Source: Anaerolineae bacterium (GTDB lineage Bacteria; Chloroflexota; Anaerolineae; 4572-78; J111). Taken from it: a stretch of DNA of 64,000 nt. Positions 7,356-44,631 of the stretch are shown piece after piece. The notes under the pieces are model-generated. The model was given only the letters and a program-made list of their open reading frames with translations. It made no database searches and had not been told where the DNA came from. The DNA lies in assembly GCA_022071955.1 (NCBI GenBank), contig JAJVIM010000042.1, forward strand, positions 1 to 64,000, in the 5' to 3' direction. Positions within the stretch are counted from its first letter, which is position 1. Every line of letters starts with the position of its first letter. Position numbers and translations under genes: made by a program.

Positions 7356-7368
7356 GTTATTCCCGGCG

Positions 7369-8151: not shown

Positions 8152-8156
8152 GTTGG

Positions 8157-8891: not shown

Positions 8892-8903
8892 CGTTATCTC
8901 CTG

Positions 8904-26329: not shown

Positions 26330-27460
26330 TCAACCGGGGTTGTCAGAAATAACCCGGTTCAGTGTTTCGATCAGTTTTTGCTGGGCCTGGGGCGATAATC
26401 CGCCGGCGGCCGCCGCCTGCAAAACGGGTTCCCAGTGCGGCACCGGCGTGTCCTGCCAGGCGATGCCGGCAGCTTCAAACACGGGCCGGGTGGCCGGCCA
26501 CGCTTCGGCCACCAGCGCCACCGGCTGGCTGCCATCGAGCGGCAGCGGCAGCGAAGTGGGCGGCGCGGACGGTGCGGGCGGTTGTTCGCCGGGGGGCAGC
26601 AGGCCAAACAGCCGCGCCGCGTTAAGGCCCATAATGTTGTCGGCAGCGTCGGGCGGCAACTTGAGCTGCTCAATTTCTTCGATAAACGGGCTAAAATCGG
26701 GGGCAGTCTGGCGGCGCGGGTAGAGTCGCAGCGGGTAGTCGGAGCCGTACAATATTTTGCCGGGGTCAACGCAGTGCAGGGCCGTGGCAAAAATTTTGGC
26801 GGTAGGGTAGAGCAGCGGCGAGGCGGCTGTATCGTACCACACGTTTTTGAGCACCCGGCCAACTTTGGGCATCAGCTCATAAAACAGCAACCCGCCGCCC
26901 CAGTGGGCCAAAATGAGCTTTAACTCCGGCAGGGTTTGCGCCAGCCGGTAGTAATGGCGCAGCGGCGTTGTGCTTTTGCCGGGGTAGTAGGGGCCAACCG
27001 CTTCGTTAACATGCAGATTGAGGGGAATATTGTGCCGGATGCAGGCCTCGGCCAGGCGCAGAAAATGGGTATCGCTCAGGCTGAAGCCCTGGGCGTACGG
27101 GTTCAACTCGCCCACCCCGGCAAAGCCGGCATCGAGGCAGCGCCGAAGTTCGGCCAGGGCCAGCGGACCGGCGTTAGGCTGAATCACTGCCAGCGGGATA
27201 ATCCGGTTGGGCCAGCGCCGGGCCAGTTCCATCGCCCGGTTGTTGCGCTCCACGCAGGCCTCGTGCCGCCGAAAATACTCGCCCACCAGCGCCACTCGGG
27301 CCAGCCCGGCCCGGTCCATAGCGGCGATCATCTGCTCGGCGCTGGCCCAGCCCTGCACCGATTTTGGCCCCAGCAGCAGCCCCCAATACGGTTCGCGCCC
27401 GGCCAGTTGGGCCGGGTCAATGGTGGGCGGCATATAATGAACGTGAGCATCAATGCGCAT
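26330..27460 (-). CDS. Amidohydrolase-family (TIM-barrel metal-dependent hydrolase) protein with C-terminal extension
   Basis: MRIDAHVHYMPP (HxH metal site) and conserved downstream His/Asp; start at 27460 or 27478. Confidence 0.75.
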   Translation of the reverse strand: MRIDAHVHYMPPTIDPAQLAGREPYWGLLLGPKSVQGWASAEQMIAAMDRAGLARVALVGEYFRRHEACVERNNRAMELARRWPNRIIPLAVIQPNAGPLALAELRRCLDAGFAGVGELNPYAQGFSLSDTHFLRLAEACIRHNIPLNLHVNEAVGPYYPGKSTTPLRHYYRLAQTLPELKLILAHWGGGLLFYELMPKVGRVLKNVWYDTAASPLLYPTAKIFATALHCVDPGKILYGSDYPLRLYPRRQTAPDFSPFIEEIEQLKLPPDAADNIMGLNAARLFGLLPPGEQPPAPSAPPTSLPLPLDGSQPVALVAEAWPATRPVFEAAGIAWQDTPVPHWEPVLQAAAAGGLSPQAQQKLIETLNRVISDNPG

Positions 27461-27519
27461 GGGCAGCTCTTTCTGCATAGCCGGATAATAGCACGGATAA
27501 GGCCAAAACGCTATCGGGA

Positions 27520-27548
27520 TTGCTTTCTGTCTGGCGTTTGGGTACAAT
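27520..27548 (+). promoter_or_regulatory. Candidate sigma70-type promoter for the STAND operon (TTGCTT-17-TACAAT)
   Basis: Hexamers and spacing read directly; 30 bp upstream of the ATG at 27579. Confidence 0.4.
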
Positions 27549-27578
27549 CTTAACCAACTTGCAAGAGGGTCCAGCGCG

Positions 27579-30500
27579 ATGAGTTTTACTGACGAGTGGC
27601 AGTCGCAGACAGCCGGCTCCATTGTTGAGGCGGCCCGATTGGTACCGCGGCTGCCCAATGTTGATCTCAAATTTGAGCTAATGGTGGTTGGGGTGCTCTG
27701 GCCGGCCCGGCAGCGGATTCAGGATTTTGAGGTGGATGCGCTGGGGGCGGTGCAGCAAGTTGTCGGTGGGCGCGCCGTAGCCGTGCTGTGCCAGGTGCAG
27801 CAGTGGAACGACGATATGCTGGCCGCCGCCCGCAGCCTGGCCGCGCTCGCGCCACGCAGCAGCGAACTTGACTCCGAATTGAAAAAGTTGATCGCCTATT
27901 TTAACGCGTTTCCGGTGTTTGCCCGGCAACTGGCCCAAAACGCCGCCGCGCCGCAGCCGGAGGTTGTTGCCCCGGTAACCGCGCCGGCCCCGCCGCGCGT
28001 GCTGCTGGCTTATGTTCAGCGCGATGGGGTTGAGCTGGCCGCGGAAATCCGCCAAACGCTGGAAGCCGAAGGGATTTCGGTGTGGCCGGATTTGGGCCAG
28101 CCGGCCGGCCAGCGCAACTGGTGGGCGCAAATGACCGCGGCCATTGCCCAGGCCGAATATTTGCTGGTGGTGATGACGCCGGCGGCGGCGCAATCCAAAT
28201 TGATTCGCCGCCAGTGGCGGGCGGCCAGCCAGCACGGCACCTGCATTTTCCCGGTTACCCGCGCCGACGACATCGATTACTCGCTGCTGCCGCGCTGGAT
28301 CAGGCAGGTTCACTTTTTCAATTTAAAGCTGGAATGGTCCAAGCTGATTGCCGCCCTCAAACAAAAGTGTGAAACCCCGCGCGTGCCGTTTATGGCCGAT
28401 GACCTGCCGGACGATTTTGTTGACCGGCCCCAGCTCGGCAAGCGGCTGCTTGGTTACCTGTTTGACCCCGTCCGCGAGGAGTCGATCCCCGGCACGGTGG
28501 GGTTATCTGGCCCCGGCGGTTACGGCAAAACCACGCTGGCCCAGATGGTTTGCCATAACGACGACATTCGGCAGGTGTTTGACAACGGCATTTTGTGGGT
28601 GACGCTGGGCGAAACCCCCGGCGATTTGAGCCGCCACGTGGTTGATTTGATCGAAGTGCTTAGCGGCGAGCGCCCCGGTTTTTCCGGGCTTGACGCGGCC
28701 GTGGTGCGGCTCAGCGAACTGCTGGCCGATCGCGAACTGCTGCTGGTCATCGACGATGTGTGGGACGCGGCCCATCTCAAACCTTTTTTGCAGGGCGGCA
28801 GCCACTGCGCCCGGCTCATCACTACCAGAAACATCAGCGCCCTGCCGGTTGATACCAAAATTGCCGAAATTGGCCCCATGCAGCCCGCCGAAGCGGTGTC
28901 GCTGCTGCGCTACCAGCTTCCCGCCGGCGGCGAAAACGAATTGCAGGCGCTGGCCCAGCGCATGGGTGGCTGGCCGCTGCTGCTCAAACTGACCAACGGT
29001 ACTCTGCGCGAGCGGGTGCAAAAATACAAACAGCCGCTGCTCGAAGCGGTTGCCTTTGTCAATCAGGCGCTCGATCAGCGCGGCCTGACCGCGTTTGATG
29101 ACCAGAGCGACGACGACCGCGATTCGGCGGTTACCCAGACCATCACCCTCAGTTTAGACCAGCTCACCCCGGTTGAACGGGAGCGCTTCAACGAGCTGGC
29201 CATCTTTCCGGACGACATCGACATTCCGCAGGCCACGCTGGAAACGCTGTGGGGCGCAACCGCCGGCCTGGATGATTTTGACACCGAAGAGCTGGCCGAT
29301 CACCTGCACGCGCTGTCTCTGCTCTCAAAGTTTGATTTAACCAGCCGCCAGATTCGGCTGCACAAAGTAATGCACAGTTATCTGCGCTACCAGCAGCGCG
29401 AGCAGCTTGTTCAAATTCACCAGCAGTTTTTGCAGGCGCAATTGGCGGCGGTGGGCCGCTGGAGTAACCTGCCCGCCAGCGATGGCTACATGTGGTCGCA
29501 CCTGGCTTACCACCTGCTCAACGCCAACCGCGCCGCCGAACTGCTGCAAACCGTGCAGGAGTTGCCTTACCTGGCCGCCAAAATTCAAATCAAAGGCTCG
29601 CACTACGCCGAGAGCGATTTAAAAACGGCGCAGGCGCTCAGTCCCACCGATGCGGCGCTGGGCGCATTGCGGCGGGCGGTATCGCAGGCCAGCTATCTGC
29701 TGGTGAAAGTTCAAAACCCGGCCGACATCATCAACACCCTGCACAGCCGCATGGTCAACATCCCGGAGCTGGCCGGCATTGTTGACTCGGCCAACTTGCC
29801 CCGGCCGCTCATCACCGCCCGCCACATGCTGCCGGATTTGCCCGATCCCCGGCTCATCCGCACTTTGTGGGGCCACACCACCGGCGTGCTGGATTGCGCT
29901 ATCAGCGCCGATGGCTCCACCACCGTTTCCGTGGACAAAGACAACACCGTGATTGTGTGGGATACCAACACCGGCGCGGCCCGCTTCCGGGTAATGCCCA
30001 GCGACAGCAAAGTGTGGAGTTGCGCGGCCAACGCCGATGGCTCGGTGGTGGTGTACGGTGCGGCCGATGGCCGGGTAACCCTGCTCGATACGGCCGCCGA
30101 GGCCGTGAAAAAACTGTGGAACGCCCACGAGGCCGGGGTCATCAGTTGCTGCATCAGCGCCGATGGCAAGCTGGTGGTCACGGCCTCTAAAGACAAAACC
30201 CTGAAAATTTGGGATGCGGCCACCGGCTCGCAGCGAGCCGTACTGGTGGGCCACGAGCGCACCGCCACCCGCTGCGGCATCAGCGCCGATGGCCGGGTGG
30301 TGGTTTCGGCCTCTAACGACGGCACGGTCAAAGTGTGGGATGCCGCCACCGGTGCGGAACGCCGCACCTTTGTGGTCGGCGCAGTTGATTCCGGGGTCGA
30401 TCAGCTTACCTTTTACAGCCAGCGCGACATCAGCTTTGGCTGCGCCATCAGCGCCGACGGCCGGATGGTAGCCGGGGCATCGTCGGCCGGCATGTTAAAT

Positions 30501-31649
30501 GTGTGGGATGCCGCCACCGGCGAGCTGAAATTTGGCACAATGGTCGATAAACGGGGCGTGTACGGCCTGGCGCTCAGCAGCGACGGCAGCCGGGTGGTTA
30601 CCGCCTCCAGCACCGGCGCGCTCAGCGTGAGAGACACCGCCGGCACGTTGCTGATGCGGCTTGAGGACCACACCCGCATTGTGAATGCCTGCGACATCAG
30701 CGCCGACGGGCTGCGCATCGTTTCGGCCTCTGATGATAAAACGGTAAAAGTGTGGGATGGCGGCAGCAGCGCCGCCGCCAGTTTGGCCGAGGTGCCGTAC
30801 AAACTCGCGGCCCAAACCTGCGCCGTCAGCGCCGATGGCCGGCTGGCGGTCACGGCGCTGGCCGATAATTCAGTAAAAGTGTGGGATGTGGCCAGCGGTG
30901 CGGATTTGGTCACCCTGCGGGGGCACACCCGCCGGGTCAATAGCTGCGCCATCGGCGCCGACGGCAAGCTGGTGGTTACGGCCTCGCAGGACCAAACGGC
31001 CATCGTTTGGGATGTTGCAACCGGCCAGCCGCAGCACACGCTGGCCGGCCACAGTTGGTCGGTGAATGGCTGCGCCATCGGCGCTAACGGGCTGTTGCTG
31101 ATGACCGCCTCAGACGACAGCACCCTCAAAGTGTGGGAAACCCGCACTGGCGAAGAACGGTTTACCCTCACCGGCCACAGCCGGGCCGTAAAAAGCTGCG
31201 CCATTAACAGCAACGGGGCGATGGCCGTTTCCGCTTCCGGCGATGGCACGCTGCGCCTGTGGAATCCGCATACCGGCGAGCAGCGGGCCGTACTCACCGG
31301 CCACACCGCGCTGGTCAACACCTGCGCCATCAGCGCCGACGGCAGCACCGTGGTCTCGGCGTCGCTGGACAAAACGCTCAAAGTGTGGAATACCCGCCCC
31401 GCCGCGGAACGGCTCACGTTGGCCGGCCACGATGCCAGCGTTACCGGCTGCGCCATCAGCGCCGACGGCCGGGTGGTGGTTTCTGTTTCTCGGGACAAAA
31501 CGCTCAAAGTGTGGGATGGCCGCTCCGGGGCGTGTTTGGGCACGCTGTTTGTCGATGAACCGCTGCACGACTGCGCCTGCTCGGCCGACGCCGGCACCAT
31601 TGTGGCGGTGAGCAGCGGCGGCGTTTATTTTTTGAAACTGGTGCAATAA
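27579..31649 (+). CDS. STAND NTPase, copy 1: N-terminal helical domain, divergent TIR, NB-ARC (Apaf-1-type AAA+), about 12-13 WD40 repeats (1356 aa)
   Basis: Walker A GLSGPGGYGKTTLAQ, Walker B LLLVIDDVWD, TTRN, GGWPLLLKL (GxP) motifs; TIR-like block RVLLAYVQRDG...; C-terminal half is repeated ...SADG..V(K/L)VWD... units. Confidence 0.85.
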   Translation: MSFTDEWQSQTAGSIVEAARLVPRLPNVDLKFELMVVGVLWPARQRIQDFEVDALGAVQQVVGGRAVAVLCQVQQWNDDMLAAARSLAALAPRSSELDSELKKLIAYFNAFPVFARQLAQNAAAPQPEVVAPVTAPAPPRVLLAYVQRDGVELAAEIRQTLEAEGISVWPDLGQPAGQRNWWAQMTAAIAQAEYLLVVMTPAAAQSKLIRRQWRAASQHGTCIFPVTRADDIDYSLLPRWIRQVHFFNLKLEWSKLIAALKQKCETPRVPFMADDLPDDFVDRPQLGKRLLGYLFDPVREESIPGTVGLSGPGGYGKTTLAQMVCHNDDIRQVFDNGILWVTLGETPGDLSRHVVDLIEVLSGERPGFSGLDAAVVRLSELLADRELLLVIDDVWDAAHLKPFLQGGSHCARLITTRNISALPVDTKIAEIGPMQPAEAVSLLRYQLPAGGENELQALAQRMGGWPLLLKLTNGTLRERVQKYKQPLLEAVAFVNQALDQRGLTAFDDQSDDDRDSAVTQTITLSLDQLTPVERERFNELAIFPDDIDIPQATLETLWGATAGLDDFDTEELADHLHALSLLSKFDLTSRQIRLHKVMHSYLRYQQREQLVQIHQQFLQAQLAAVGRWSNLPASDGYMWSHLAYHLLNANRAAELLQTVQELPYLAAKIQIKGSHYAESDLKTAQALSPTDAALGALRRAVSQASYLLVKVQNPADIINTLHSRMVNIPELAGIVDSANLPRPLITARHMLPDLPDPRLIRTLWGHTTGVLDCAISADGSTTVSVDKDNTVIVWDTNTGAARFRVMPSDSKVWSCAANADGSVVVYGAADGRVTLLDTAAEAVKKLWNAHEAGVISCCISADGKLVVTASKDKTLKIWDAATGSQRAVLVGHERTATRCGISADGRVVVSASNDGTVKVWDAATGAERRTFVVGAVDSGVDQLTFYSQRDISFGCAISADGRMVAGASSAGMLNVWDAATGELKFGTMVDKRGVYGLALSSDGSRVVTASSTGALSVRDTAGTLLMRLEDHTRIVNACDISADGLRIVSASDDKTVKVWDGGSSAAASLAEVPYKLAAQTCAVSADGRLAVTALADNSVKVWDVASGADLVTLRGHTRRVNSCAIGADGKLVVTASQDQTAIVWDVATGQPQHTLAGHSWSVNGCAIGANGLLLMTASDDSTLKVWETRTGEERFTLTGHSRAVKSCAINSNGAMAVSASGDGTLRLWNPHTGEQRAVLTGHTALVNTCAISADGSTVVSASLDKTLKVWNTRPAAERLTLAGHDASVTGCAISADGRVVVSVSRDKTLKVWDGRSGACLGTLFVDEPLHDCACSADAGTIVAVSSGGVYFLKLVQ

Positions 31650-34600
31650 ATGGCTTTTGAACAACAGTGGCGCGAGCAAGCGCATCATTGGATTGCCGAG
31701 TGCGTGCAGTTGGCCCAGGCCAACCCCGATGGCGAACTGGAATCGGTGCTGGCCGCGGTGGCGGTGCTGTGGCCGCTGCGCGAGCCGGTGCAGCAGTTTG
31801 ATCTGGAGGTCATCGCCGCAGTGCACCAGCAAGCTGGCGGCGGCTCAAAGTTTGTGCTGCGGCAGGTGCAGGCCTGGGATGATGGCGATCTGCTCAAAAC
31901 CGCCCGCCGCCTCCGCCGCGATCTGGCCCAAAACCCCGATCTGCTGGGCGCGGTCAACCGCCTGCTGGAGCAGTTTGGCGCCAAAGCCGAGTTTGATCGG
32001 CTGGCCGCGGCCGGCCAACCGACCCCCGCGAGCGCCGTGGCCGCGGCCCAATCGCGCGTGTTTATTTCGTATGCCCGCAGCGACGGCGAAACCGAAGCCC
32101 ACCATCTGCGCCAGCGGCTGGAGGCGGAAGGGATTGCAGTGTGGCAGGATCGGGTCAAAATGGTCGGTGGCCGCGATTGGTGGCTGCAAATTACCGAGGC
32201 GCTCGATCAGGTGGAGTTTTTGCTGCTGGTAGCTACCCGCGGCGCGCTGCAATCAGAAGTTGTCCACAAAGAGTGGCGCTACGCCCGCCAGCAAGGGGTG
32301 TGCGTGCTGCCCATCCAGGTGCAGGCCGATCTGCCGGAAGAGCTTATCCCCCGCTGGATGCGCCGCGCCCATTTTTACAACATCGAGCAGGAGTGGTCGC
32401 GGCTGATTGAAAATTTGAACACGCCCTGCCAAACCCCGCGCGTGCCGCACATGGTCGAAGAACTGCCGGATGGCTTTGTGTCCCGGCCGCAGCTTCTTGA
32501 CCAGGTGGCGGCGCAGTTGGTCAGCGCCAGCGGCGAGCCGGTGGCGGCAACGGTGGCTCTGCACGGGCTGGGTGGCTACGGTAAAACGTTGCTGGCCCGG
32601 TCGGTGTGCCACAGCGACGCGATTCGGCAGGGCTTTGACGACGGGATTTTGTGGATGACGCTGGGTGAAACCCCCGGCGACCTGACCGAGCGGGTGGTTG
32701 ATCTGATTGAGGTACTCACCGGCGAGCGGCCGGCCTTTGCCGGGCTTGACGCCGCCGAAACGCGGCTGGCCCAATTGTTGGGCGAGCGCAATTTTTTGCT
32801 GGTCATCGATGATGTGTGGCAGGCCAGCCATCTGGCCCCATTTTTGCAGGGCGGCCCGTGCTGCGGCCGCATCATTACCACCCGCAATCTGTCAACGCTG
32901 CCGCCGCAGGCCCAGCCCATCGAAGTTGGGCCAATGACCCAGCCCGAAGCAACGGCTTTGCTCGGCCGGGGGCTGCCGGCCGGGCCGGAAAAACCGCTGC
33001 ACGATCTGGCCGAACGGCTGGCGTACTGGCCGCTGCTGCTTGGCCTGGTGAACGGTACACTGCGCGACCGGGTGAATAATGACAACCAGCCGCTGGCCGA
33101 TGCGCTGGTTTACGTGAATAAAGCGCTCGACAAGCGCGGCCTGACTGCGTTTGATGCGGTCAATACCGGCGCTCGCGATCAGGCCGTAAGCCACACCCTC
33201 GGTATGAGCCGTGATTTGCTGCTACCGGATGAACTGGCCCGTTTTAACGAGCTGGCCATCTTTCCGCCGTATGCCGCCATTCCGCTGGACACGCTGGCCG
33301 TTTTTTGGGGCGCAACCGGTGGTCTTGATGCCGCCGCCATCGAAGCCCTGTGCCAGCGCCTGTTTCAGTTGTCGCTGTTGGCCCGGTTTGATATTCCCAG
33401 CCAAACCATCAAAGTGCATTCAATTTTGCGCAATTATCTCACCACCGAGCACGCCGCCCAGTTGCCGGCGCTGCACCAGAAATTTTTGGATGCCTTTGCT
33501 CAAAACCTGCCCGCCTGGGCCGCGTTGCCCCATGCCAACGGCTATTTGTGGAATCATCTGGCCTACCATCTGGTTAACGCTGGCCGCAGTGACGAGTTAG
33601 TCAGCACTGTGAAAGATTTGAGCTATCTGGCGCACAAAACATTTTTGCGCTCGGCCAACGCCGCCGAGGCCGATTTGCTGGCCGCCCGCCGGGTTGCGCC
33701 GGCAGACGCGGTTTTGGCCAAGTTGCATCTCGCCTTTTCACAGGCCAGCCACCTGCTGGCCGAGTGCAAGTCACTGGCAGAAGTGGCCGGCACGCTGCAC
33801 AGCCGGCTGGCTTTTGCGCCGCAACTAGCGCCGCTGGCCACCGCCGCCGAGGTTGGCTTGCCGCGGCCGCTGCTCACCGCCGGCCAACCCCTGCCCGATC
33901 TGCCGGCAGCCAGTTTGCTGCGGGCGTTTGCCGGCCATAATACCGCGGCGCTGGGCTGCGACATTGATGATGCCGGGGCCAGCGTGGTGTCTATTGACCG
34001 CGCGGCGCAGGTTAAAGTTTGGGACGCCCGGACCGGCGCGGAGCGGCTGACTCTGGCCGGCCACCAAACGCTGGGTAACTGCTGCGCCATCAGCGGCAAC
34101 GGTGCGGTGGTGGTGTCCGCTGCCTGGGATGGCGCACTCAACGTGTGGGACGCTGCTACCGGCGAACTGCGCCACGCGCTATCGGCCCACGAGGCGCCCA
34201 TTTACGCCTGCGCCATCAGCGCCGATGGCTCCGTTATTTTGTCGGCTTCCAAAGATAAAACGGTAAAAATTTGGGATGGCGTAACCGGCGCGCTGCGGTT
34301 TACGTTGAGCGGCCACGAGCGAACGGTGACCGGCTGCTCGCTCAACGCCGATGGCGCGCTGGCGGCCAGTTGCGCGCTGGACGGCACGGTAAAACTGTGG
34401 CATACGGCCAGCGGCCAGTTGCAGGCTACCCTCACCGCTTATGAACTGCGCGATTACAGCCCGGTGGCCGATTTAACCTTTACCTCCACCGCCTCATCGC
34501 TGTTGAGCTGCGCCCTCAGCGCCGATGGCCGCACGCTGGTGTCAACGCTGCCCAACGGCGCGCTCAAAGTGTGGGATGTGCCCACCGGCGCGGAACGCTG

Positions 34601-35705
34601 CCTGCTGCGCGGCCACACCGGCTGGGTTGAAAATTGCGCCGTCAGCGCCGATGGCCGGCTGCTGGTGTCCGCGGGGAATGATAAAACTCTCAAAGGCTGG
34701 GATGGCGTAACCGGCGACCTGCTGTTTACGCTCAAAGGCCATTTACGCGCGGTTGCCGCCTGCGCCATTAATGCTGATGGCACTATCATCGCCTCGGCCT
34801 CGCATGACCGGTCGGTGCGGTTGTGGGATGCCCGGGCCAGCCAGGAGCCTGTTGCCACCGAAGTATACAGTTCGCCAACGCAGGCGTGCGCCAGCAGCGC
34901 CAGTTTGCTGGCTTTTGGCGTGGCCGAAGAGTCCGTGCAACTTTTGGAAATCGCCACGCAGCAGCCGGGGCCGTTGCTCAGCGGCCATCAGCGGCCAATA
35001 TTGGGTTGCGCGGTGGGCCGGCGACTGGCGGTAACGGCTTCGCAGGATCATTCGCTCAAAATTTGGGATGCCGCCACCGGCCGCCAACTGCATTCGCTCG
35101 GCGGCCACGCCTGGGCGGTGAATGATTGTGCATTGACCCCCGATGAAACGCGGGTGGTTTCCGCCTCCGATGACAGCACCCTCAAAATTTGGGATACCGC
35201 TACCGGCGCCGAGTTGCGCACGCTGGCCGGCCATATCCGCGGGGTAAACGGCTGCGCGGTTAGCCCCGATGGCGCGTTTGTGGTTTCGGCCGCGGCGGAT
35301 GAAACGCTCAAAATTTGGGACTTGTCCACCGGCGCGGAGCGGTTGACTCTGGCCGGCCACACCGGTCCGGTGAATCAGTGCGCCGTCAGCCCCGATGGCG
35401 GGTTGATCGCTTCCGCCTCGCGGGACGGCACGCTCAAAATCTGGCGCAGTCAGAATGGGGCGGAGGTCATCACTTTAACCGGCCACACCGGTTTTGTGAC
35501 CGGCTGTGCGTTCCACCCCGGCGGCGAATTTCTGCTGTCGGTTTCCAGAGATGAAACCATCAAACTGTGGCGGATTGGCACCGGGCAGGGCGTGGCTTCG
35601 CTGCGGGTTAGCGGCGGCCTGCACAACTGCGCCTGGGCTTCCGACGGTCGGCTCGCGCTGGTGGCCGGGGCCAGAGGCGTTTACTTTTTGCGGGTTATTT
35701 GGTGA
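31650..35705 (+). CDS. STAND NTPase, copy 2: N-terminal helical domain, canonical TIR, NB-ARC, WD40 (1351 aa)
   Basis: TIR signature RVFISYARSDGETEAHHLRQRLEAEGIAVWQD; Walker A GLGGYGKTLLAR; LLVIDDVWQ; WD40 repeats; start codon abuts the copy 1 stop (TAAATG). Confidence 0.85.
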   Translation: MAFEQQWREQAHHWIAECVQLAQANPDGELESVLAAVAVLWPLREPVQQFDLEVIAAVHQQAGGGSKFVLRQVQAWDDGDLLKTARRLRRDLAQNPDLLGAVNRLLEQFGAKAEFDRLAAAGQPTPASAVAAAQSRVFISYARSDGETEAHHLRQRLEAEGIAVWQDRVKMVGGRDWWLQITEALDQVEFLLLVATRGALQSEVVHKEWRYARQQGVCVLPIQVQADLPEELIPRWMRRAHFYNIEQEWSRLIENLNTPCQTPRVPHMVEELPDGFVSRPQLLDQVAAQLVSASGEPVAATVALHGLGGYGKTLLARSVCHSDAIRQGFDDGILWMTLGETPGDLTERVVDLIEVLTGERPAFAGLDAAETRLAQLLGERNFLLVIDDVWQASHLAPFLQGGPCCGRIITTRNLSTLPPQAQPIEVGPMTQPEATALLGRGLPAGPEKPLHDLAERLAYWPLLLGLVNGTLRDRVNNDNQPLADALVYVNKALDKRGLTAFDAVNTGARDQAVSHTLGMSRDLLLPDELARFNELAIFPPYAAIPLDTLAVFWGATGGLDAAAIEALCQRLFQLSLLARFDIPSQTIKVHSILRNYLTTEHAAQLPALHQKFLDAFAQNLPAWAALPHANGYLWNHLAYHLVNAGRSDELVSTVKDLSYLAHKTFLRSANAAEADLLAARRVAPADAVLAKLHLAFSQASHLLAECKSLAEVAGTLHSRLAFAPQLAPLATAAEVGLPRPLLTAGQPLPDLPAASLLRAFAGHNTAALGCDIDDAGASVVSIDRAAQVKVWDARTGAERLTLAGHQTLGNCCAISGNGAVVVSAAWDGALNVWDAATGELRHALSAHEAPIYACAISADGSVILSASKDKTVKIWDGVTGALRFTLSGHERTVTGCSLNADGALAASCALDGTVKLWHTASGQLQATLTAYELRDYSPVADLTFTSTASSLLSCALSADGRTLVSTLPNGALKVWDVPTGAERCLLRGHTGWVENCAVSADGRLLVSAGNDKTLKGWDGVTGDLLFTLKGHLRAVAACAINADGTIIASASHDRSVRLWDARASQEPVATEVYSSPTQACASSASLLAFGVAEESVQLLEIATQQPGPLLSGHQRPILGCAVGRRLAVTASQDHSLKIWDAATGRQLHSLGGHAWAVNDCALTPDETRVVSASDDSTLKIWDTATGAELRTLAGHIRGVNGCAVSPDGAFVVSAAADETLKIWDLSTGAERLTLAGHTGPVNQCAVSPDGGLIASASRDGTLKIWRSQNGAEVITLTGHTGFVTGCAFHPGGEFLLSVSRDETIKLWRIGTGQGVASLRVSGGLHNCAWASDGRLALVAGARGVYFLRVIW

Positions 35706-36170: not shown

Positions 36171-36208
36171 GTTGGGGGTGGTTTAACCCCAACTCTGTTT
36201 TCGTATTT
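36171..36208 (+). terminator. Rho-independent terminator after the RpiB-family gene
   Basis: GTTGGGG-gtggtttaa-CCCCAAC followed by TCTGTTTTCGTATTT. Confidence 0.55.
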
Positions 36209-36233
36209 GGCCCCCGATTCGTAAGTTTGGTTC

Positions 36234-36262
36234 TTGACAAGCGTGTTTAACTATGGTATTCT
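36234..36262 (+). promoter_or_regulatory. Promoter of the LacI-family regulator (TTGACA-17-TATTCT)
   Basis: Consensus -35 and near-consensus -10 read directly. Confidence 0.45.
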
Positions 36263-36273
36263 GGGCGAAATTT

Positions 36274-36289
36274 CCGGTAACGTTACCGG
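36274..36289. promoter_or_regulatory. LacI-family operator palindrome CCGGTAACGTTACCGG (autoregulatory site)
   Basis: Perfect 16-bp palindrome with central CG, immediately downstream of the -10. Confidence 0.55.
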
Positions 36290-36328
36290 TATTGATACCG
36301 AAATCGCGAAAAATTGAGAATTTGACCA

Positions 36329-37345
36329 ATGCCACGTTCAAAGGGATCCGTAACCATCCACGATGTTGCCCGCGCCGCCGGAGTTTCGGTGTCTACGGTT
36401 TCCCGTGTATTAAATGACAAAGACGATGTTGCCATTGATACGTATGAACAGGTGAAGCAGGTCATTTCAGAGTTAGGTTATACCTCCAGCCTGGCCGCCA
36501 AAAGCATGCGCAGCCGAAAAACAAATGTTATCGGTTTGGTCATGCCTGATGTGGGCGACTCTTTTTCAGTTGAGGTAATGAAAGGGGTCAACCAGGCGAT
36601 TGCCCAGTTTGGGTATGATTTGATTATGTACACCGGCGGCGACGCCAGCGCCAGTTCGTGGCCGGCCCGCGAACAAAAATACATCTCGCTGCTTAACGGC
36701 AGTATTACCGATGGCGTTGTCATTGTAGCACCCTACGCGCTCACCTTTCCCACCACTTACCCCGTAGTAGCAGTAGACCATCACCCCGGCGACACAAATT
36801 TTCCCGCTGTTGTTTCTACCAACCGTGAAGGCGCGTTAGCCATTATGGAATATTTGATTCAACTTGGGCATCGACGCATTGGCTACGTTGGCGGGCGTAG
36901 CGACCTGCAAAGCGGTATTCGTCGATATCAGGGTTATGTTGATGCCTTGCAGCAGGCGGACATCCCCGTTAACCCGGAACTGGTTCAGGAAGGTAATTTT
37001 ACAATTGATGTTGGGTATCGCTGTGGCCAGCATCTGTTGAACCTGCCCGAACGGCCAACAGCTATTTTTGCCGCCAACGACCAATCGGCCTTTGGTGTGA
37101 TTAGGGCTGCCCACGAAATGGGGCTGAAAATCCCCGACGATGTCTCGATTGTGGGGTTTGACAATATCCCGGAAACAGCCTATTTCCTGCCCGGTGGTTT
37201 AACAACCGTAGACCAGAGTGTGCGCCAGATGGGGCTGGCCGCAACGGAAATGCTGGTCAAACTTATTAAAGGGGAGGCATTGGCTGAAACGATTTACAAA
37301 GTGCCAACCCGACTTGTTGTTCGTGGCTCCTGCCGGGCCGTTTAG
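36329..37345 (+). CDS. LacI-family transcriptional regulator
   Basis: N-terminal HTH VTIHDVARAAGVSVSTVSRVLN, periplasmic-binding-protein-like core. Confidence 0.9.
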   Translation: MPRSKGSVTIHDVARAAGVSVSTVSRVLNDKDDVAIDTYEQVKQVISELGYTSSLAAKSMRSRKTNVIGLVMPDVGDSFSVEVMKGVNQAIAQFGYDLIMYTGGDASASSWPAREQKYISLLNGSITDGVVIVAPYALTFPTTYPVVAVDHHPGDTNFPAVVSTNREGALAIMEYLIQLGHRRIGYVGGRSDLQSGIRRYQGYVDALQQADIPVNPELVQEGNFTIDVGYRCGQHLLNLPERPTAIFAANDQSAFGVIRAAHEMGLKIPDDVSIVGFDNIPETAYFLPGGLTTVDQSVRQMGLAATEMLVKLIKGEALAETIYKVPTRLVVRGSCRAV

Positions 37346-37369
37346 TCCCCCATCTTTTTTTTACCTTTT

Positions 37370-37394
37370 CGGTAACGTTACCGGAAACGTTATC
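37370..37394. promoter_or_regulatory. Second LacI-family operator (CGGTAACGTTACCGG plus partial AAACGTTATC) upstream of the sugar ABC operon
   Basis: Same palindrome as at 36274. Confidence 0.55.
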
Positions 37395-37562
37395 ACTACA
37401 CAAGGAGGTGGCATCGGTAAAAAATCTGTTCATATGGAATAGCAAGGCTTCCCTTTCTTCTCTGCACTTGAGGGAAAACTTGCCCAAAGCGGTGTGGGGC
37501 CGAGCATCACACCTACAATGATTTAACCCGTTAAAACGAACACTATTTTAAGGAGAAGAACA

Positions 37563-39068
37563 ATGCGTAAGTCGTTTATGTATACCTTTAGTTTGTTGAT
37601 TATCTTGTCCCTGATACTCGGCGCTTGCGGTGGCGCTGCCCCGGCTCAGCCGGCCGCCGAAAAACCCGCCGCCGAAGCGCCTGCTGCTGAAAAGCCTGCC
37701 GAGCAACCCGCCGCCGAAGCGCCTGCTGCTGAAAAACCCGCGGAACAGCCCGCCGCCGAACAGCCCGCTGCCGAAAAAACTGTCTTGAATGTGTGGTCAT
37801 TCACCAACGAAATCAACACAATGGCTATTGCCTTTGAAGGCAAACATGCCGATGTGGATATTAAATACACGATGATCCCGATGACCAATGGTGAATACCA
37901 GACCAAGCTCAAAGCTGCGTTGGGCACCGCGGATGCCCCCGACGTAATCGCTCTGGAAGCTTCTTTTGTGAAAGAACTGGTTGAATCTGATTTTTTGGCC
38001 GACCTGGGCGAGCTGCTCCCCGACGCTGAAGCCAACAAAACCTATCCCTTTGTGGTTGATGTTGGCACAAACGATGGTGTAACCAAAGCCTACGCCTATC
38101 AGGCTACTCCCGGCGCATTGTTTTACCGCCGCAGCCTGGCCAAAGAGTATTTTGGCACCGACGACCCCGCAGAAATTCAGGCGCTGTTGTCTGACCTTGA
38201 CAAGTTCGTTGCCGCCGCGGCTGTTGTTAAAGAAAAATCTGGCGGCAACACCTACATGGTCGGCTCCAGCGGCGATTTCCAGAATCCCTTCTTTGCCAAC
38301 CGGGAACAACCCTGGATTGTGGATGACACGCTGGTAGTTGACCCCATGGTGCAAAAATATGTTGAAACCGCCAAGCTGTTCCGCGATCAGGGCTACGAAG
38401 CTCAGGCGCAGCAGTGGCAAGAAGGCTGGTTTGCCGGCATGAACGACAGCCTGGTTGATGCCCAGGGCAATCCCAAAAAAGTATTCAGCTACTTCCTGCC
38501 CACCTGGGGATTGCCCTACGTACTGGCCCCCAACGCCAAATCGGCGGATGGTTCGAGCGATACCAGCGGCGACTGGGGCGTTATCAGCGGGCCGCTGCCC
38601 TACCAATGGGGCGGCACCTGGCTGGGTGTGATGAAAGATAGTTCCAAAATGGACCTGGCCAAAGAATTTGTTCGCTTTGCCACGCTGGATCAGGAAAACC
38701 TCACCAACTGGGCCACCGGCGTTTACACCAACGACTACCTGAAGGCCATCGATCCCCAAGTTCCCGCCGACCAGATGCAGGCCCCTGGCGACTTTGTTTC
38801 CAGCCAGGTTGTTGTTGAAAAGATCATTTCTTCCTTTGATAATTCCGAACTCAGCGCCTTTTTAGCCGGGCAAAACTCGTATGCCGGCTTTGCCGAAGCC
38901 GCGCCCAGCGTCAATGCCAAATTGATGACCGGTTCCGACGATGCCATTCAACGAGCGCTCAACGACCCGCTTAACCAATACCTCAACGGCGAAATCACCG
39001 AAGACCAGATGTGGAGCACCTGGAAAGACAGCCTCCGCATTGAATTCCCGGATTTAACCATCCCCTAA
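37563..39068 (+). CDS. ABC transporter substrate-binding lipoprotein (carbohydrate, family 1)
   Basis: Signal peptide with lipobox LGACG, Pro/Ala/Glu-rich linker, SBP fold; strong RBS AAGGAGAAG. Confidence 0.85.
   Translation: MRKSFMYTFSLLIILSLILGACGGAAPAQPAAEKPAAEAPAAEKPAEQPAAEAPAAEKPAEQPAAEQPAAEKTVLNVWSFTNEINTMAIAFEGKHADVDIKYTMIPMTNGEYQTKLKAALGTADAPDVIALEASFVKELVESDFLADLGELLPDAEANKTYPFVVDVGTNDGVTKAYAYQATPGALFYRRSLAKEYFGTDDPAEIQALLSDLDKFVAAAAVVKEKSGGNTYMVGSSGDFQNPFFANREQPWIVDDTLVVDPMVQKYVETAKLFRDQGYEAQAQQWQEGWFAGMNDSLVDAQGNPKKVFSYFLPTWGLPYVLAPNAKSADGSSDTSGDWGVISGPLPYQWGGTWLGVMKDSSKMDLAKEFVRFATLDQENLTNWATGVYTNDYLKAIDPQVPADQMQAPGDFVSSQVVVEKIISSFDNSELSAFLAGQNSYAGFAEAAPSVNAKLMTGSDDAIQRALNDPLNQYLNGEITEDQMWSTWKDSLRIEFPDLTIP
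37650..37780 (+). repeat. Coding tandem repeat (about 42-45 bp x 3) encoding the AEKPAEQPAAEAPA linker
   Basis: Near-identical nucleotide repeats read directly. Confidence 0.6.
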
Positions 39069-39084
39069 GTTCTTGTTATAGTAT

Positions 39085-39120
39085 GGGCCAGTGTATTTCA
39101 AATACACTGGCCCATTTTAT
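39085..39120 (+). terminator. Intercistronic hairpin/partial terminator between SBP and permease genes
   Basis: GGGCCAGTGTATTT/AAATACACTGGCCC 14-bp perfect stem followed by ATTTTAT. Confidence 0.55.
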
Positions 39121-39220
39121 AGGAGTCCGGCAGAACCGGGGGTAGATACCAAAAATGCCTGCCTCTAAAGGGAGCTGCCTCCCACGCCCGGTCTGCGGTG
39201 TTATTTTCACAGGAGTAAAT

Positions 39221-40123
39221 ATGATGGGTCGATTGCGATTAAGAAAAGATCACTACGGATATGTTTTTATCGCTCCTTTTATTATTGGTTTTCTGACATT
39301 TGGTTTATACCCGGTTTACAACACGCTGTACCTCAGTTTTACAGATACAATCCTGTTAAGTAGCAGCGCCAATTTTGTGGGGTTTACCAACTTTGTGCGC
39401 CTGTTTGCTGATAATGTGTTTATGAACGCCATCAAAAATAGCTGGCTGCTCTGGATCCTAAATTTTATTCCCCAAATTGGAGTAGCCATGTTGCTGTCGG
39501 TTTGGTTTACCAGCCTGCGGCTGAGAATTAAAGGTGTTGGCATTTGGCGGGCGATATTCTTTTTGCCAAATTTGCTGATGCCCGCTGCTGTGGCGGCGCT
39601 GTATTTTAGCTTGTTCTCGTTTTACGGCCCGGTTAACCAATTTTTGGTCCGGGCCGGATTTTTATCTGAGGCGATGCAGTTTTTGCAGAATGCTACCATT
39701 GCCCGCGGCCTTGTGGTTTTCATTCAGTGGTGGATGTGGTACGGCCCAACCATCATTTTGCTGATGGCCGGGATGACCGCCATTCCCGTTTCGCTGTATG
39801 AATCGGCCATGATCGACGGCGCCAACGAGCAGCAGATGTTCTGGCGGATAACACTGCCGCTGCTAAAACCCATCCTGATTTATATTTTTGTCACGTCGCT
39901 GGTTGGCGGGATGCAAATGTTTGATATTCCCTACCTTTTAACGGACGGCCGCGGCTCGCCCAGCGGTTCCATTATGACCAACAACATCCTGATGTATCTG
40001 AAATTTGCCAGCAGTAAAGGTCACATTGGCGCGGCGTCGTCTGTTGGGGTTTTGGTTTTTATTATGACCTGCGTTTGTGCGCTCGGCATCTTTTATTTTT
40101 TACGAGAAAAAGACCATCGTTGA
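39221..40123 (+). CDS. Sugar ABC transporter permease (MalF/UgpA-like)
   Basis: Six TM helices, EAA-like loop; RBS AGGAG. Confidence 0.85.
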   Translation: MMGRLRLRKDHYGYVFIAPFIIGFLTFGLYPVYNTLYLSFTDTILLSSSANFVGFTNFVRLFADNVFMNAIKNSWLLWILNFIPQIGVAMLLSVWFTSLRLRIKGVGIWRAIFFLPNLLMPAAVAALYFSLFSFYGPVNQFLVRAGFLSEAMQFLQNATIARGLVVFIQWWMWYGPTIILLMAGMTAIPVSLYESAMIDGANEQQMFWRITLPLLKPILIYIFVTSLVGGMQMFDIPYLLTDGRGSPSGSIMTNNILMYLKFASSKGHIGAASSVGVLVFIMTCVCALGIFYFLREKDHR

Positions 40124-40168
40124 TGACCGTTTGGGGTGGAAAATAATGCAAAAACCGGAGATGTTGCG

Positions 40169-41014
40169 ATGCTGAACACTTATAAATTGAACACACTGAT
40201 CCTGCGTGGATTTATCTATATTATCCTGTTTGTCCTGTTAATTGTCACCATTGTGCCGATTTGGCTGTTAATTGTAAATTCAACCCGCTCTACCGTTGAA
40301 ATTCAACAGGGGTTGAGTTTTATGCCCAGCACCCATTTGGTTGAAAATTACGGCATTCTGCTCGGCCGGGGATTGAACCTGTGGCGCGGTTTTTTTAACA
40401 GCCTGTTTGTGGCCGTGGCGTCAACCATTCTGACAGTTTATTTTTCAATGCTCACCGCGTACGGTATTGTCGTTTACAATTTTAAGGGCAAACGACTCTT
40501 TTCTAATTTTATTGTGGTGCTGGTTATGATCCCAATGCAGCTTTCAATTGTTGGCTTTTACCAGTACATGTCAAAACTGGGGCTAACCGATAATTTTGCC
40601 TCGCTGATTTTGCCCACCATTGCCTCGGCCGGCTCCGTATTTTTTGGCAAGCAATACCTTGAGTCGGTGGTGATCAAAGACCTCATCGATGCCGGCCGCG
40701 TTGATGGAGCCAGCGAATTCAGCATTTTTCACAGCATTATGATGCCTATCGCTCTGCCGGGGGCGGTAACGATGGGAATTTTCGCCTTTATTGCATCCTG
40801 GAACAACTTTTTCAACGCGTTTATCCTGATTTCGTCACTTGAGCGCTACACCCTGCCGATGCTGGTGCAAACCCTGCGCGGCGACGTGTATCGCACCGAA
40901 TACGGCGCTATCTATCTGGGGCTGGCTTTTACCGTTGTCCCCATCATTATTATTTATACTATTTTTTCCAGATACATCGTCAGCGGTATCGCGATGGGTT
41001 CGGTTAAAGAATAG
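40169..41014 (+). CDS. Sugar ABC transporter permease (MalG/UgpE-like)
   Basis: Six TM helices; RBS GGAG. Confidence 0.85.
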   Translation: MLNTYKLNTLILRGFIYIILFVLLIVTIVPIWLLIVNSTRSTVEIQQGLSFMPSTHLVENYGILLGRGLNLWRGFFNSLFVAVASTILTVYFSMLTAYGIVVYNFKGKRLFSNFIVVLVMIPMQLSIVGFYQYMSKLGLTDNFASLILPTIASAGSVFFGKQYLESVVIKDLIDAGRVDGASEFSIFHSIMMPIALPGAVTMGIFAFIASWNNFFNAFILISSLERYTLPMLVQTLRGDVYRTEYGAIYLGLAFTVVPIIIIYTIFSRYIVSGIAMGSVKE

Positions 41015-41049
41015 GTTATCTCACATCGCCACATTTGAAAGGTAAAATA

Positions 41050-43656
41050 ATGACCCAAACGAATCACCCCTCCGAACGACTCTATCTCGACCCAACGCAA
41101 CCTATCGCCGCGCGCGTGCAAAACCTGGTCGGCCAGATGACGCTGGCCGAAAAAATCTCGCAGATGGTTTTTACCGCGCCGGCCATCGACCGGCTGGATA
41201 TTGCCAAACACAATTGGTGGAACGAAGGGCTGCACGGCCTGGGCCGGGCCGGCGTGGCCACCGTTTTTCCGCAGGCCATTGGGCTGGCCGCCACCTGGAA
41301 CGAGCAACTGATGCACACCGTCGCTACCGCCATTTCCGACGAAGCCCGGGCCAAACACCACGCCGCCGCCCGCCACGGCCTTCGAGAAATGTACACCGGC
41401 CTCACCTGTTGGTCGCCCAATGTTAACATTTTCCGCGATCCCCGCTGGGGGCGCGGCCAGGAAACCTACGGCGAAGACCCCTATTTAACCGCCAAAATGG
41501 GCGTCGCCTTTGTCAAAGGGTTGCAGGGCGATGACCCCCATTATCTCAAACTGGCGGCCACCCCCAAACATTACGCCGTCCACAGCGGGCCGGAGTCGCT
41601 GCGCCACCATTTTGATGCCCGGATTGATGAACGGGATATGCGCGAATTTTACCTGTTTGCCTTTGAAGCCACCGTTAAAGAAGCCAACGCCGCTTCAATT
41701 ATGGGCGCGTACAACCGCACCAACGGCGAACCGTGCTGCGCCAGCCCCACCCTGCTGGAGCAGATTTTGCGCCGCGAATGGGGCTTTGATGGCTACGTTG
41801 TTTCGGACTGCGAAGCTATCCGCGACATTTTTGAAAACCACAAAGTGGTGGCCACGGCCGCCGAAGCCGCGGCGCTGGCCGTAAAAAACGGCTGCGAGTT
41901 GAACTGTGGCCGAATTTATTCGGTGCTGCTCGACTCCGTTAAACAGGGACTGATTGACGAAGCCGCCATCGATCAGGCCGTGACGCGGCTGTTCACGGCC
42001 CGCTTCAAACTGGGCATGTTCGATCCGCCGAAAAGCGTGCCCTATGCCCACATCCCCATCGACGTGATTAATTCGCCGGCGCATCAGAAACTGGCGTTGC
42101 AGGCGGCCCGAGAATCGATTGTGCTGCTCAAAAATGAAGGCAACCTGCTGCCGCTGCGCAAAGACATCGGTTCAATTGCCGTGATTGGGCCAAATGCCGA
42201 CGACGTACAGATTTTGCTGGGCAATTACAACGGCACGCCGGCCACAGCGGTTACACCACTCGACGGCATTCGCCAGAAAGTTAGCCCGGCCACCCGCGTT
42301 TACCACGCCTCCGGCTGCGCGCTGGCCGACGGCATGCCGTTTTTGCAGACAATTCCCACCGCGCACCTGCGCCCTGCCCATCGAACCACCGCCGAAACCG
42401 GGCTGACCGGCCGTTACTATCCCAACGCTCAATTCAGCGGCCAGCCGCAACTGGAGCAGATCGACAGCCAGATCAACTTTATCTGGAAAGATACCAACCC
42501 GCTCACCGGCCGCTGGGGTGATCATTTCAGCGTTCGCTGGGACGGTTTTTTGGTGCCGCCGGCCAGCGGTGTGTACCATCTGGCCGCCAACGGCTTCAGC
42601 GAATACCGGCTCTATCTGGATGGCGAACTGCTGGTGGACAATAAAATGGAACACCATCCCATCCTCAAATACAAAGAAATCGCGCTCGAAGCCGGCCGAT
42701 TTTACCGTCTGCAACTGGAATACGTGAACGAGGGGCTTGACCCGCAAATTCAGCTTTTGTGGGCGCCCCCGGAACGGGATTACGAATCGGCGGCACTGGC
42801 CGCGGCGCAAAATGCCGAGGTGGTGGTGCTGGTAATGGGGCTGTCGGCGCAGTTGGAAGGGGAAGAAATGCCCATTTTCATTGATGGCTTTGCCGGCGGC
42901 GACCGGACCGACATCAAACTGCCGGCGGCGCAGGAAAATCTGCTCAAAAAAATCCACGCGCTGGGCAAACCGGTGGTGCTGGTGCTGACCAACGGCAGCG
43001 CGTTGGCGGTCAATTGGGCGGCAGAACACATTCCGGCCATTGTCGAAGCGTGGTATCCGGGGCAGGCCGGCGGCGCGGCCCTGGCCGATGTGCTGTTTGG
43101 CGATTACAACCCGGCCGGCCGGTTGCCGCTCACGTTCTACCAATCGGTTGATGATTTGCCGCCGTTTGAGGATTACCGGCTGGAGGGGCGCACCTATCGT
43201 TATTTCTGCGGCCAGCCGCTCTTTTCCTTTGGCCACGGTTTGAGTTATACTACCTTTGCGTATAGCAATTTACAGTTTGACCGCCCGGATGTTGCGGCGG
43301 GCGGAGAAGTGGCTGTCAGCGTGGATATTACCAACAGCGGCGCTCGCGCCGGCGATGAGGTGGTGCAGTTGTACATTCGCCAGGCCGAAGGAGCGCGGTC
43401 GGCGTTGAAGCTCAAAAGCTTCAAACGGCTGTCGCTGGAGCCGGGCCAATGCAAAACGGTTACGTTTTATCTGCACACCCACCAGCTCGGCCTGTATAAT
43501 GAGGCCATGCGCTACATGGTTGAGCCGCAAACGGTGCAGGTGCTGGTGGGACGCTCGGCCGCAGATTTGCCGCTGGCTGCAACGCTCAACGTGGTTGGCC
43601 AACCGGTCGATGCCACCGACCATAAAGTCTTTTTCAGCGAGGTTGTGGTGGATTAA
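41050..43656 (+). CDS. Glycoside hydrolase family 3 beta-glucosidase with PA14 insertion
   Basis: GH3 N-terminal catalytic region (GFDGYVVSDCEA...), PA14-like block (GRYYPNAQFSGQP...HFSVRWDGFLVPP), C-terminal Fn3-like region. Confidence 0.9.
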   Translation: MTQTNHPSERLYLDPTQPIAARVQNLVGQMTLAEKISQMVFTAPAIDRLDIAKHNWWNEGLHGLGRAGVATVFPQAIGLAATWNEQLMHTVATAISDEARAKHHAAARHGLREMYTGLTCWSPNVNIFRDPRWGRGQETYGEDPYLTAKMGVAFVKGLQGDDPHYLKLAATPKHYAVHSGPESLRHHFDARIDERDMREFYLFAFEATVKEANAASIMGAYNRTNGEPCCASPTLLEQILRREWGFDGYVVSDCEAIRDIFENHKVVATAAEAAALAVKNGCELNCGRIYSVLLDSVKQGLIDEAAIDQAVTRLFTARFKLGMFDPPKSVPYAHIPIDVINSPAHQKLALQAARESIVLLKNEGNLLPLRKDIGSIAVIGPNADDVQILLGNYNGTPATAVTPLDGIRQKVSPATRVYHASGCALADGMPFLQTIPTAHLRPAHRTTAETGLTGRYYPNAQFSGQPQLEQIDSQINFIWKDTNPLTGRWGDHFSVRWDGFLVPPASGVYHLAANGFSEYRLYLDGELLVDNKMEHHPILKYKEIALEAGRFYRLQLEYVNEGLDPQIQLLWAPPERDYESAALAAAQNAEVVVLVMGLSAQLEGEEMPIFIDGFAGGDRTDIKLPAAQENLLKKIHALGKPVVLVLTNGSALAVNWAAEHIPAIVEAWYPGQAGGAALADVLFGDYNPAGRLPLTFYQSVDDLPPFEDYRLEGRTYRYFCGQPLFSFGHGLSYTTFAYSNLQFDRPDVAAGGEVAVSVDITNSGARAGDEVVQLYIRQAEGARSALKLKSFKRLSLEPGQCKTVTFYLHTHQLGLYNEAMRYMVEPQTVQVLVGRSAADLPLAATLNVVGQPVDATDHKVFFSEVVVD

Positions 43657-43668
43657 CCTCGAACTGTT

Positions 43669-44595: not shown

Positions 44596-44631
44596 AATAG
44601 GATTTTTACAAATCCAGCCCAGGAGAAAAAG

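Follow-up and report, generated by a model that had tools for sequence, protein, structure and literature searches.

Can two adjacent receptor genes of a bacterium form a pair in which one TIR domain is an enzyme and the other is not? The question is raised by a stretch of 64,000 nucleotides from an Anaerolineae bacterium (assembly GCA_022071955.1, contig JAJVIM010000042.1, positions 1 to 64,000; hereafter the window), which carries two tandem genes on its forward strand. Copy 1, the upstream type, occupies 27579..31649 (+) and encodes 1356 residues; copy 2, the downstream type, occupies 31650..35705 (+) and encodes 1351 residues. Open reading frame (ORF) translation and Pfam matches show that both proteins consist of an N-terminal helical domain (N-domain), a TIR domain, an NB-ARC ATPase with APAF1_C, and WD40 repeats, with a TIR that is canonical in copy 2 and lacks the catalytic Glu in copy 1. 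BLASTP aligns the two at 45% identity over their full length with only 17 gap positions, which identifies them as tandem paralogs. The TAA stop codon of copy 1 directly abuts the ATG of copy 2 (junction sequence CAATAAATGGCT), and we regard the genes, which come from a Caldilineaceae-type Chloroflexota bacterium, as two Apaf-1-like STAND (NLR-like) receptors that are inherited as a pair and probably translated together. On balance, we lean towards a heteromeric pair in which one TIR would be an NADase and the other would have a structural or regulatory role.

The TIR domain of copy 1 spans residues 139-266 (27993..28376, +) and that of copy 2 residues 135-262 (32052..32435, +). Both match Pfam TIR_2 (PF13676), with scores of 55.3 bits for copy 1 (residues 141-250) and 68.1 bits for copy 2 (residues 137-244), the gathering score being 28 bits. 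The original prediction described a canonical TIR in copy 2 and a degenerate one in copy 1 from a gap-free alignment of two 89-residue blocks, and placed the observation at 31650-32400. The alignment is indeed gap-free, but it comprises 81 residues (copy 1 R140-G220 against copy 2 R136-G216; 38/81 identical, 47%, BLASTP), and within copy 2 the interval takes in the N-domain and the greater part of the TIR, but it leaves out the copy 1 TIR. The contrast itself stands. Copy 2 carries the motifs FISYARSDG and HKEW, the latter with E208 (GAG, 32271..32273, +) as the predicted catalytic Glu; the copy 1 counterparts are LLAYVQRDG and RRQW, and Q212 (CAG, 28212..28214, +) occupies the Glu position, as had been proposed.

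The column that holds this residue contains Glu in 120 of 122 sequences (copies 1 and 2 plus 120 database homologs), with Gln confined to copy 1 and one copy-1-like fragment, and because of this near invariance the difference between the two TIRs goes beyond chance. Thirty-one TIR columns show a conservation of 95% or more among the homologs. Copy 2 retains all 31 and every family-invariant residue, whereas copy 1 retains 21, with changes that include F138L, S140A, R143Q, G174Q, E208Q, and R213S (copy 2 numbering). Copy 1 is left without the catalytic Glu, without the Ser and Arg of the betaA motif FISYAR, and without the second Gly of the BB loop. Gln is found in place of the Glu (Q212), of the BB-loop Gly (the SARM1 G601 position), and of the betaA-motif Arg. 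The copy 1 alphaC helix, read from the sequence as QSKLIRRQWRAAS, contains no acidic residue at all.

Several comparisons indicate that E208 of copy 2 is the catalytic Glu. The best PDB match of the family profile is the SARM1 TIR (E = 3.6e-9), and the profile segment evvrkEwryarqqG aligns with SARM1 DWVHKEIVTALSCG, setting "rkEw" on "WVHKEI". The Glu of this WVHKE motif we take to be E642; a PDB entry named "Sarm1 E642A" is among the structure matches, as are entries for G601P mutants. In the same profile alignment, the second Gly of the family "GGRD" falls on the Gly of SARM1 "EAGK", G601. This is G174 of the copy 2 BB loop DRVKMVGGRD (residues 167-176, 32148..32177, +), which is kept in all downstream copies. 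Phmmer aligns the copy 2 "HKEW" with "LKEL" of SPARTA TIR-APAZ, where the Glu is residue 77 counted in that chain, and SPARTA E77A is a published catalytic mutant (PMC10474274). The AlphaFold model of copy 2 residues 128-275 (predicted local distance difference test score, 83) has the flavodoxin-like TIR fold, with elements in the order betaA-alphaA-betaB-BB loop-alphaB-betaC-alphaC-betaD, and positions E208 in the helix immediately following betaC, that is, alphaC. The top Foldseek matches of the model are the TIR domains of TIR-1, SARM1, and SPARTA, with a probability of 1.00.

As the mark of an active TIR, we used an alphaC Glu at the position of SARM1 E642, SPARTA E77, and RPS4 E88; copy 2 has this residue and copy 1 does not. 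By these comparisons, the copy 2 TIR bears every hallmark of TIR NAD+ hydrolases. The copy 1 TIR presumably adopts the same fold, given its gap-free alignment with copy 2 at 47% identity. That copy 2 is catalytically competent and copy 1 inactive is a prediction from sequence. The idea that the Gln/Glu position corresponds to the catalytic Glu of NADase TIRs is borne out by the alignment with SARM1 E642 and SPARTA E77 and by the predicted alphaC placement. We also considered a catalytic Glu located elsewhere and shared by both copies. We reject this on the SARM1 profile alignment and the AlphaFold model, and the copy 1 alphaC has no acidic residue to offer.

The same arrangement recurs in related loci. 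The nearest genome match is a metagenome-assembled genome (MAG) of Caldilineaceae (Chloroflexota) with 94% protein identity, and a genome scan with copy-1-like sequences identified five loci in Chloroflexota MAGs, three of them from Caldilineaceae and one each from Anaerolineales and Anaerolineae, with identities of 94-51%. Homologs looked up in databases contributed L001, L003, L013/L014, L009, and L010, and a metagenome scan added the short contigs L011 and L012. The tandem occurs in the same order in the window and in seven other Chloroflexota loci (L004, L008, L007, L005, L006, L001, and L013). It is present on every contig long enough to show it, with the copy-1 type first and genes of ~1350-1390 residues each. 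All downstream copies have the Glu, in the form K-E-W. Upstream copies lack it in 12 of 13 cases, with Gln in the window, L004, L008, L001, L002, L011, and P0124, Leu in L007, L005, and L012, Val in L006, and Ile in L009. The orthologous loci, for which a survey had been suggested, thus keep the gene order and, apart from the upstream copy of L013, the division at the Glu. The SYAR Arg and the second BB-loop Gly are missing from all upstream copies aligned for these positions and kept in every downstream copy. Most upstream copies still have the Asp after betaB and the WW motif. The TIR relatives without the N-domain that we examined are single genes, and the Glu is present in them. A conserved third gene beside the pair was sought across the loci, and none is common beyond close relatives.

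Some of the searches were less productive. A homolog search with the first 300 residues of copy 1 gave no matches, its word prefilter probably being swamped by the Ala/Pro-rich linker that connects the N-domain and TIR in both copies. A search with the copy 1 TIR plus linker returned one canonical Glu-bearing TIR and no new upstream-type sequence. An exact look-up of copy 2 in the assembly index gave no entry. In several metagenome assemblies, the long genes are split into two to four called ORFs (L001 5887-12672, L015 10001-13664, and L016 10001-13699), by appearance through frameshift errors. As a consequence, the protein databases hold mostly fragments of at most 513 residues, which limits homolog searches.

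In a neighbor-joining tree of the region from the N-domain to HD2, upstream and downstream copies form separate clades that are reciprocally monophyletic and agree in their internal topology. Such congruent sister clades point to one old duplication that preceded the lineage splits and was followed by co-inheritance. The downstream TIR is the best-conserved domain among orthologs, with 77/72/59/59% identity to the window copy; the upstream TIR is only average, with 66/59/49/48%. For the window against L004, the ratio of nonsynonymous to synonymous substitution rates (dN/dS) is 0.076 for the upstream TIR, 0.118 for the downstream TIR, and 0.11-0.14 for whole genes (0.11 for copy 1). The copy 1 TIR is under strong purifying selection and is not decaying.

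Mean pairwise identity, calculated per structural element for 9 upstream and 9 downstream TIRs, reveals that the two types are constrained in different places. The downstream TIRs are tight in betaA, the SYARSDG loop, betaB, the BB loop, alphaB, and the end of alphaC (0.79-0.93, with 0.86 for the alphaC end), the exception being alphaA at 0.62, and loose in betaD (0.51), the DD region (0.43), and betaE (0.38). The upstream TIRs are loose throughout the first half (0.36-0.56), but tighter than the downstream ones in betaC (0.69), betaD (0.70), the DD region (0.64), and betaE (0.58), and their motif LLPRWIRQVHF(Y/F)NL is nearly invariant. In the single-gene relatives, both halves of the TIR are conserved. 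Within the limits of these small samples, the reciprocal pattern would fit a heteromeric contact whose BB/active-site side is maintained by the downstream TIR and whose D/E side is maintained by the upstream TIR.

A mechanism can be proposed on these grounds. Activation would presumably begin with a ligand on the WD40 propellers, followed by nucleotide exchange in NB-ARC, upon which both proteins would join into one hetero-oligomer with their TIRs stacked in the head-to-tail manner of SARM1, SPARTA, and plant resistosomes. The copy 2 TIR would contribute the BB loop and the active site and would cleave NAD+, and the resulting NAD+ depletion or nucleotide signal could lead to growth arrest or death of an infected cell. 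The contribution of the copy 1 TIR would be confined to its betaD-alphaE docking face, by which the copy 2 site is opened or completed, and at rest the copy 1 TIR may also restrain the copy 2 TIR. A homomeric interface would thereby be divided between two paralogs, as proposed for plant RRS1/RPS4. The suggestion of one competent TIR partner and one inactive or regulatory partner is supported by the losses of Glu, Arg, and Gly in copy 1 and by the conservation of the pair, from which such roles may be read. More tentatively, and falling somewhat short of what we would call probable, the genes could represent a prokaryotic sensor/executor NLR pair. In such an obligate hetero-oligomeric "resistosome", the head-to-tail TIR interface of a homo-oligomeric ancestor would have been split between paralogs, with the BB loop and active site in one and only the docking face in the other, independently of and convergently with the paired TIR-NLRs of plants.

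Several observations weigh against a heteromeric pair. The upstream copy of L013 (983-5071, on a Logan contig) keeps the Glu (LIRREWRYARQQG, codon GAA), though it is otherwise of the upstream type, with LISYIPEDG as its betaA motif and PLEGKRDWW as its BB loop; it may be an intermediate or a revertant. Since L013 keeps this residue, Glu loss is not a defining ancestral event, and the upstream catalytic position looks released from constraint (E, Q, L, V, and I) rather than fixed as Gln. In L009, the upstream-type gene (6622-10713; P0126, with Ile at the catalytic site) is intact, and there is no downstream-type gene on its 17-kb contig, so that either the partner lies elsewhere or the upstream type works alone, perhaps via its N-domain. 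In addition, with its P-loop intact and its WD40 sensor complete, each copy could in principle act alone, the neighbors of the pair in the window are housekeeping genes with no defense island, and the conservation contrast comes from only nine sequences per group. One could picture independent tandem duplicates that respond to different ligands and form no complex. Copy 1 would then signal through, for example, its N-domain or TIR scaffolding, and its TIR would be kept for folding or oligomerization of its own homo-oligomer. The complete sensors and ATPase motifs of both copies agree with such independence, as do the WD40 regions, which are only ~42% identical between the paralogs, the solitary gene of L009, and the occurrence of the N-domain at the effector position in many TIR-less STAND proteins. 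We nevertheless consider it unlikely, because adjacency and order are kept in 8/8 loci that show both genes, across ~50% sequence divergence, the trees of the two clades are congruent, and two independent homo-oligomers would not readily account for the reciprocal TIR constraint.

Copy 1 might instead be purely restraining, a guard or antitoxin whose dead TIR, perhaps together with the N-domain, blocks self-association of the copy 2 TIR until a trigger arrives and has no part in the active enzyme. There is a precedent in plants, where the RRS1 TIR suppresses autoactivity of the RPS4 TIR (bioRxiv 10.1101/2025.04.11.646618). The strong conservation of the non-catalytic copy 1 TIR and the position of the putative inhibitor gene, which comes first with its stop codon abutting the next start, are compatible with this role. 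However, a simple inhibitor has no need of a complete 1356-residue receptor with an intact ATPase and a WD40 sensor, and the solitary gene of L009 would be an inhibitor without a target. Sequence data do not separate pure restraint from the heteromeric pair, and on these arguments we judge it rather improbable. Far less probable still is a copy 1 TIR that remains enzymatic through another residue or a different chemistry. The Glu of the L013 upstream copy and the Asp after betaB and WW motif of most upstream copies could be cited in its favor. Yet the alphaC of the window copy 1 is devoid of acidic residues, and the position varies among Q, L, V, and I upstream, as expected once catalytic constraint is lifted. 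The SYAR Arg and the Gly at the SARM1 G601 position are gone from all upstream copies examined, and replacement of this Glu by Ala is the standard way of killing NADase activity in TIR enzymes. Finally, we give almost no credence to copy 1 as a decaying duplicate or pseudogene. Its TIR_2 score is below that of copy 2, but intact ORFs of ~1360 residues are present in six further complete loci (L004, L005, L006, L007, L008, and L013), with upstream genes 51-94% identical to the window copy 1 over the first 400 residues. These intact ORFs, the low dN/dS of the gene and its TIR, and the intact ATPase motifs refute decay.

The heteromeric pair finds its closest parallel in plants. Sensor TIRs of paired plant TNLs are without the catalytic Glu; in RRS1/RPS4, the sensor TIR, with no NADase site and a degenerate BB loop, restrains the executor and may supply a substrate-binding face (bioRxiv 10.1101/2025.04.11.646618). 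As in pairs of the RRS1/RPS4 type, two TIR-NB-ARC-repeat receptors are genetically linked (here adjacent in eight loci). One TIR keeps the Glu and BB loop and the other is Glu-less with a degenerate BB loop, yet conserved. For the plant pair as well, a heteromeric complex has been proposed, with the dead TIR restraining and/or supporting the active one (bioRxiv 10.1101/2025.04.11.646618). There are also clear differences. Plant pairs are head-to-head and divergently transcribed, whereas the bacterial genes point the same way, the stop codon of the first abutting the start codon of the second. The sensor repeats are leucine-rich in plants and WD40 here, and the P-loop of the plant sensor is dispensable, while both bacterial P-loops are intact in sequence. 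Unlike the plant receptors, both bacterial partners have an extra N-terminal helical domain. RRS1 carries an integrated WRKY decoy, whereas the bacterial partners share one architecture. We found no integrated decoy domain in either copy, the domain order and length being the same and no extra Pfam domain present. The resemblance to paired sensor/helper NLRs that had been pointed out therefore extends to the linkage and the Glu-less partner with its degenerate BB loop, but not to a decoy. Since the bacterial paralogs are each other's closest relatives, their origin is independent of the plant pairs.

Single-gene bacterial TIR-NB-ARC-WD40/TPR proteins (the NLR-like STANDs of Chloroflexota, Cyanobacteria, and Actinobacteria, and TIR-bearing defense genes of the Avs/NLR type) have the same core of TIR_2, NB-ARC, and repeats. 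Their TIRs are 50-64% identical to that of copy 2, and the catalytic Glu is essentially invariant. The single-gene relatives examined have no N-domain and conserve both TIR faces, so that pairing and the division of faces are specific to the N-domain-bearing clade. A solved 824-residue "tetratricopeptide repeat protein" with an N-terminal TIR, PDB 9m0n_A, matches the family profile with E = 6.8e-7 and may be the closest solved bacterial TIR-repeat receptor; a literature search on this TIR-TPR structure found nothing relevant.

SARM1/TIR-1, SPARTA TIR-APAZ, and TIR-SAVED, which the copy 2 TIR matches best in sequence and fold, are TIR NADases activated by head-to-tail assembly, and the catalytic Glu and BB-loop Gly align. 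Their regulatory modules are ARM-SAM, Argonaute, or SAVED rather than NB-ARC-WD40, and their assemblies are built of identical TIRs, unlike the proposed pair. The apoptosome ATPases Apaf-1, Dark, and CED-4 resemble the bacterial proteins in NB-ARC, the Dark-like winged helix, APAF1_C, and two WD40 propeller-sized blocks. They differ in that the N-terminal module of the bacterial, paired proteins is a helical domain plus TIR and not a CARD. The NAIP/NLRC4 inflammasome is similar in concept, with two paralogous STAND receptors dividing labor in one hetero-oligomer, but it uses a NACHT ATPase instead of NB-ARC and has no TIRs, and its sensor and amplifier differ in architecture.

Outside the TIRs, the two copies are built alike. 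The NB-ARC ATPase, winged helix, and APAF1_C helical domain occupy residues 280-750 of copy 1 (28416..29828, +) and, with a winged helix that is Dark-like, residues 275-745 of copy 2 (32472..33884, +). The NB-ARC hidden Markov model (HMM) matches the two copies with 63.7 and 59.6 bits, and APAF1_C matches both with 27-28 bits, above the cut-off of 22.8 bits. As marks of a STAND/NB-ARC protein, we took the NB-ARC HMM match, Walker A GxxGxGK[ST], Walker B hhhhDD, the sensor-1 Arg, and HD2, all of which are present. A motif alignment finds Walker A, Walker B, sensor-1, and GLPL-like motifs intact in both copies and in all loci. WD40 regions of ~14 repeats follow at 29829..31646 (+) in copy 1 and 33885..35702 (+) in copy 2, forming two propeller-sized repeat blocks per protein. 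PADLOC-DB v2 yielded no match to a system-specific model, only domain-level TIR and repeat matches with E = 1e-5 to 1e-12.

The N-domain of copy 1 (residues 1-120, 27579..27938, +) aligns with that of copy 2 (residues 1-118, 31650..32003, +), which is a predicted six-helix bundle. This domain of ~118 residues has no Pfam or NCBIfam match, and its family is rare, with 94 representatives in 1.84 billion proteins, always starting from residue 1. In most members, what comes after the N-domain is not a TIR but a conserved "I[KQ]AALVNIGG[VI]TNIQSL" stretch and a P-loop NTPase, and some short members (such as P0129) consist of the N-domain and an IKAALVNIGGxTNIQSL-like stretch alone. The stretch, frequent in these relatives, is absent from the pair itself. 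Dyrka et al. 2020 reportedly described a Bell domain, an N-terminal helical bundle of ~120 residues, together with partner genes of NLRs that have a short amyloid motif in common. The N-domain family may be related to this Bell-domain/amyloid-motif NLR signaling.

The pair is flanked upstream by genes for NfeD, an MFS transporter, an AMP-binding enzyme, a response regulator-GAF protein, and an amidohydrolase, and downstream by RpiB, LacI, and an ABC sugar transporter. The amidohydrolase ORF (26330-27670, -) has a listed TTG start that overlaps the copy 1 start (27579, +) by ~90 nucleotides, and its Pfam match begins only at residue 72. Its true start is probably further in, and the divergent amidohydrolase and copy 1 probably share a short promoter region. 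A lower-GC block at ~36200-44600 (51-52% at 36-42 kb vs 61-64% around it) contains the LacI regulator, the ABC sugar transporter, and an 873-residue ORF. The syntenic Caldilineaceae locus L008 does not have this block, and RpiB there directly precedes the homolog of window 44596-45423; the window and L008 thus differ by an indel of ~8.4 kb immediately downstream of the pair. The surroundings of the solitary L009 gene are mobile and defense-like, unlike the housekeeping context in the window, and include a serine resolvase, a DDE transposase, HigB/HigA, and an Eco57I-type methylase/restriction gene.

TIR-NB-ARC-WD40 proteins are already known in Chloroflexota and other filamentous bacteria, and the Glu criterion for TIR domains is standard. 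In the papers searched, we came across no account of bacteria that carry such receptors as a conserved pair in which one TIR is catalytically degenerate. To our knowledge, the pairing of NLRs with a catalytically dead TIR in the sensor is viewed as an innovation of plants, and the bacterial STAND immune proteins that we know of have so far been described as single genes. Why sensors lose NADase activity is still debated, the choice being between restraint of the executor and supply of a substrate-binding face. The bacterial pair, if true, would mean that such a split can evolve by plain duplication of a homo-oligomeric TIR-STAND receptor, without a decoy domain. It would offer a simpler, bacterially expressible system for learning how a dead TIR controls a live one, and would add a two-receptor logic to bacterial STAND immune proteins.

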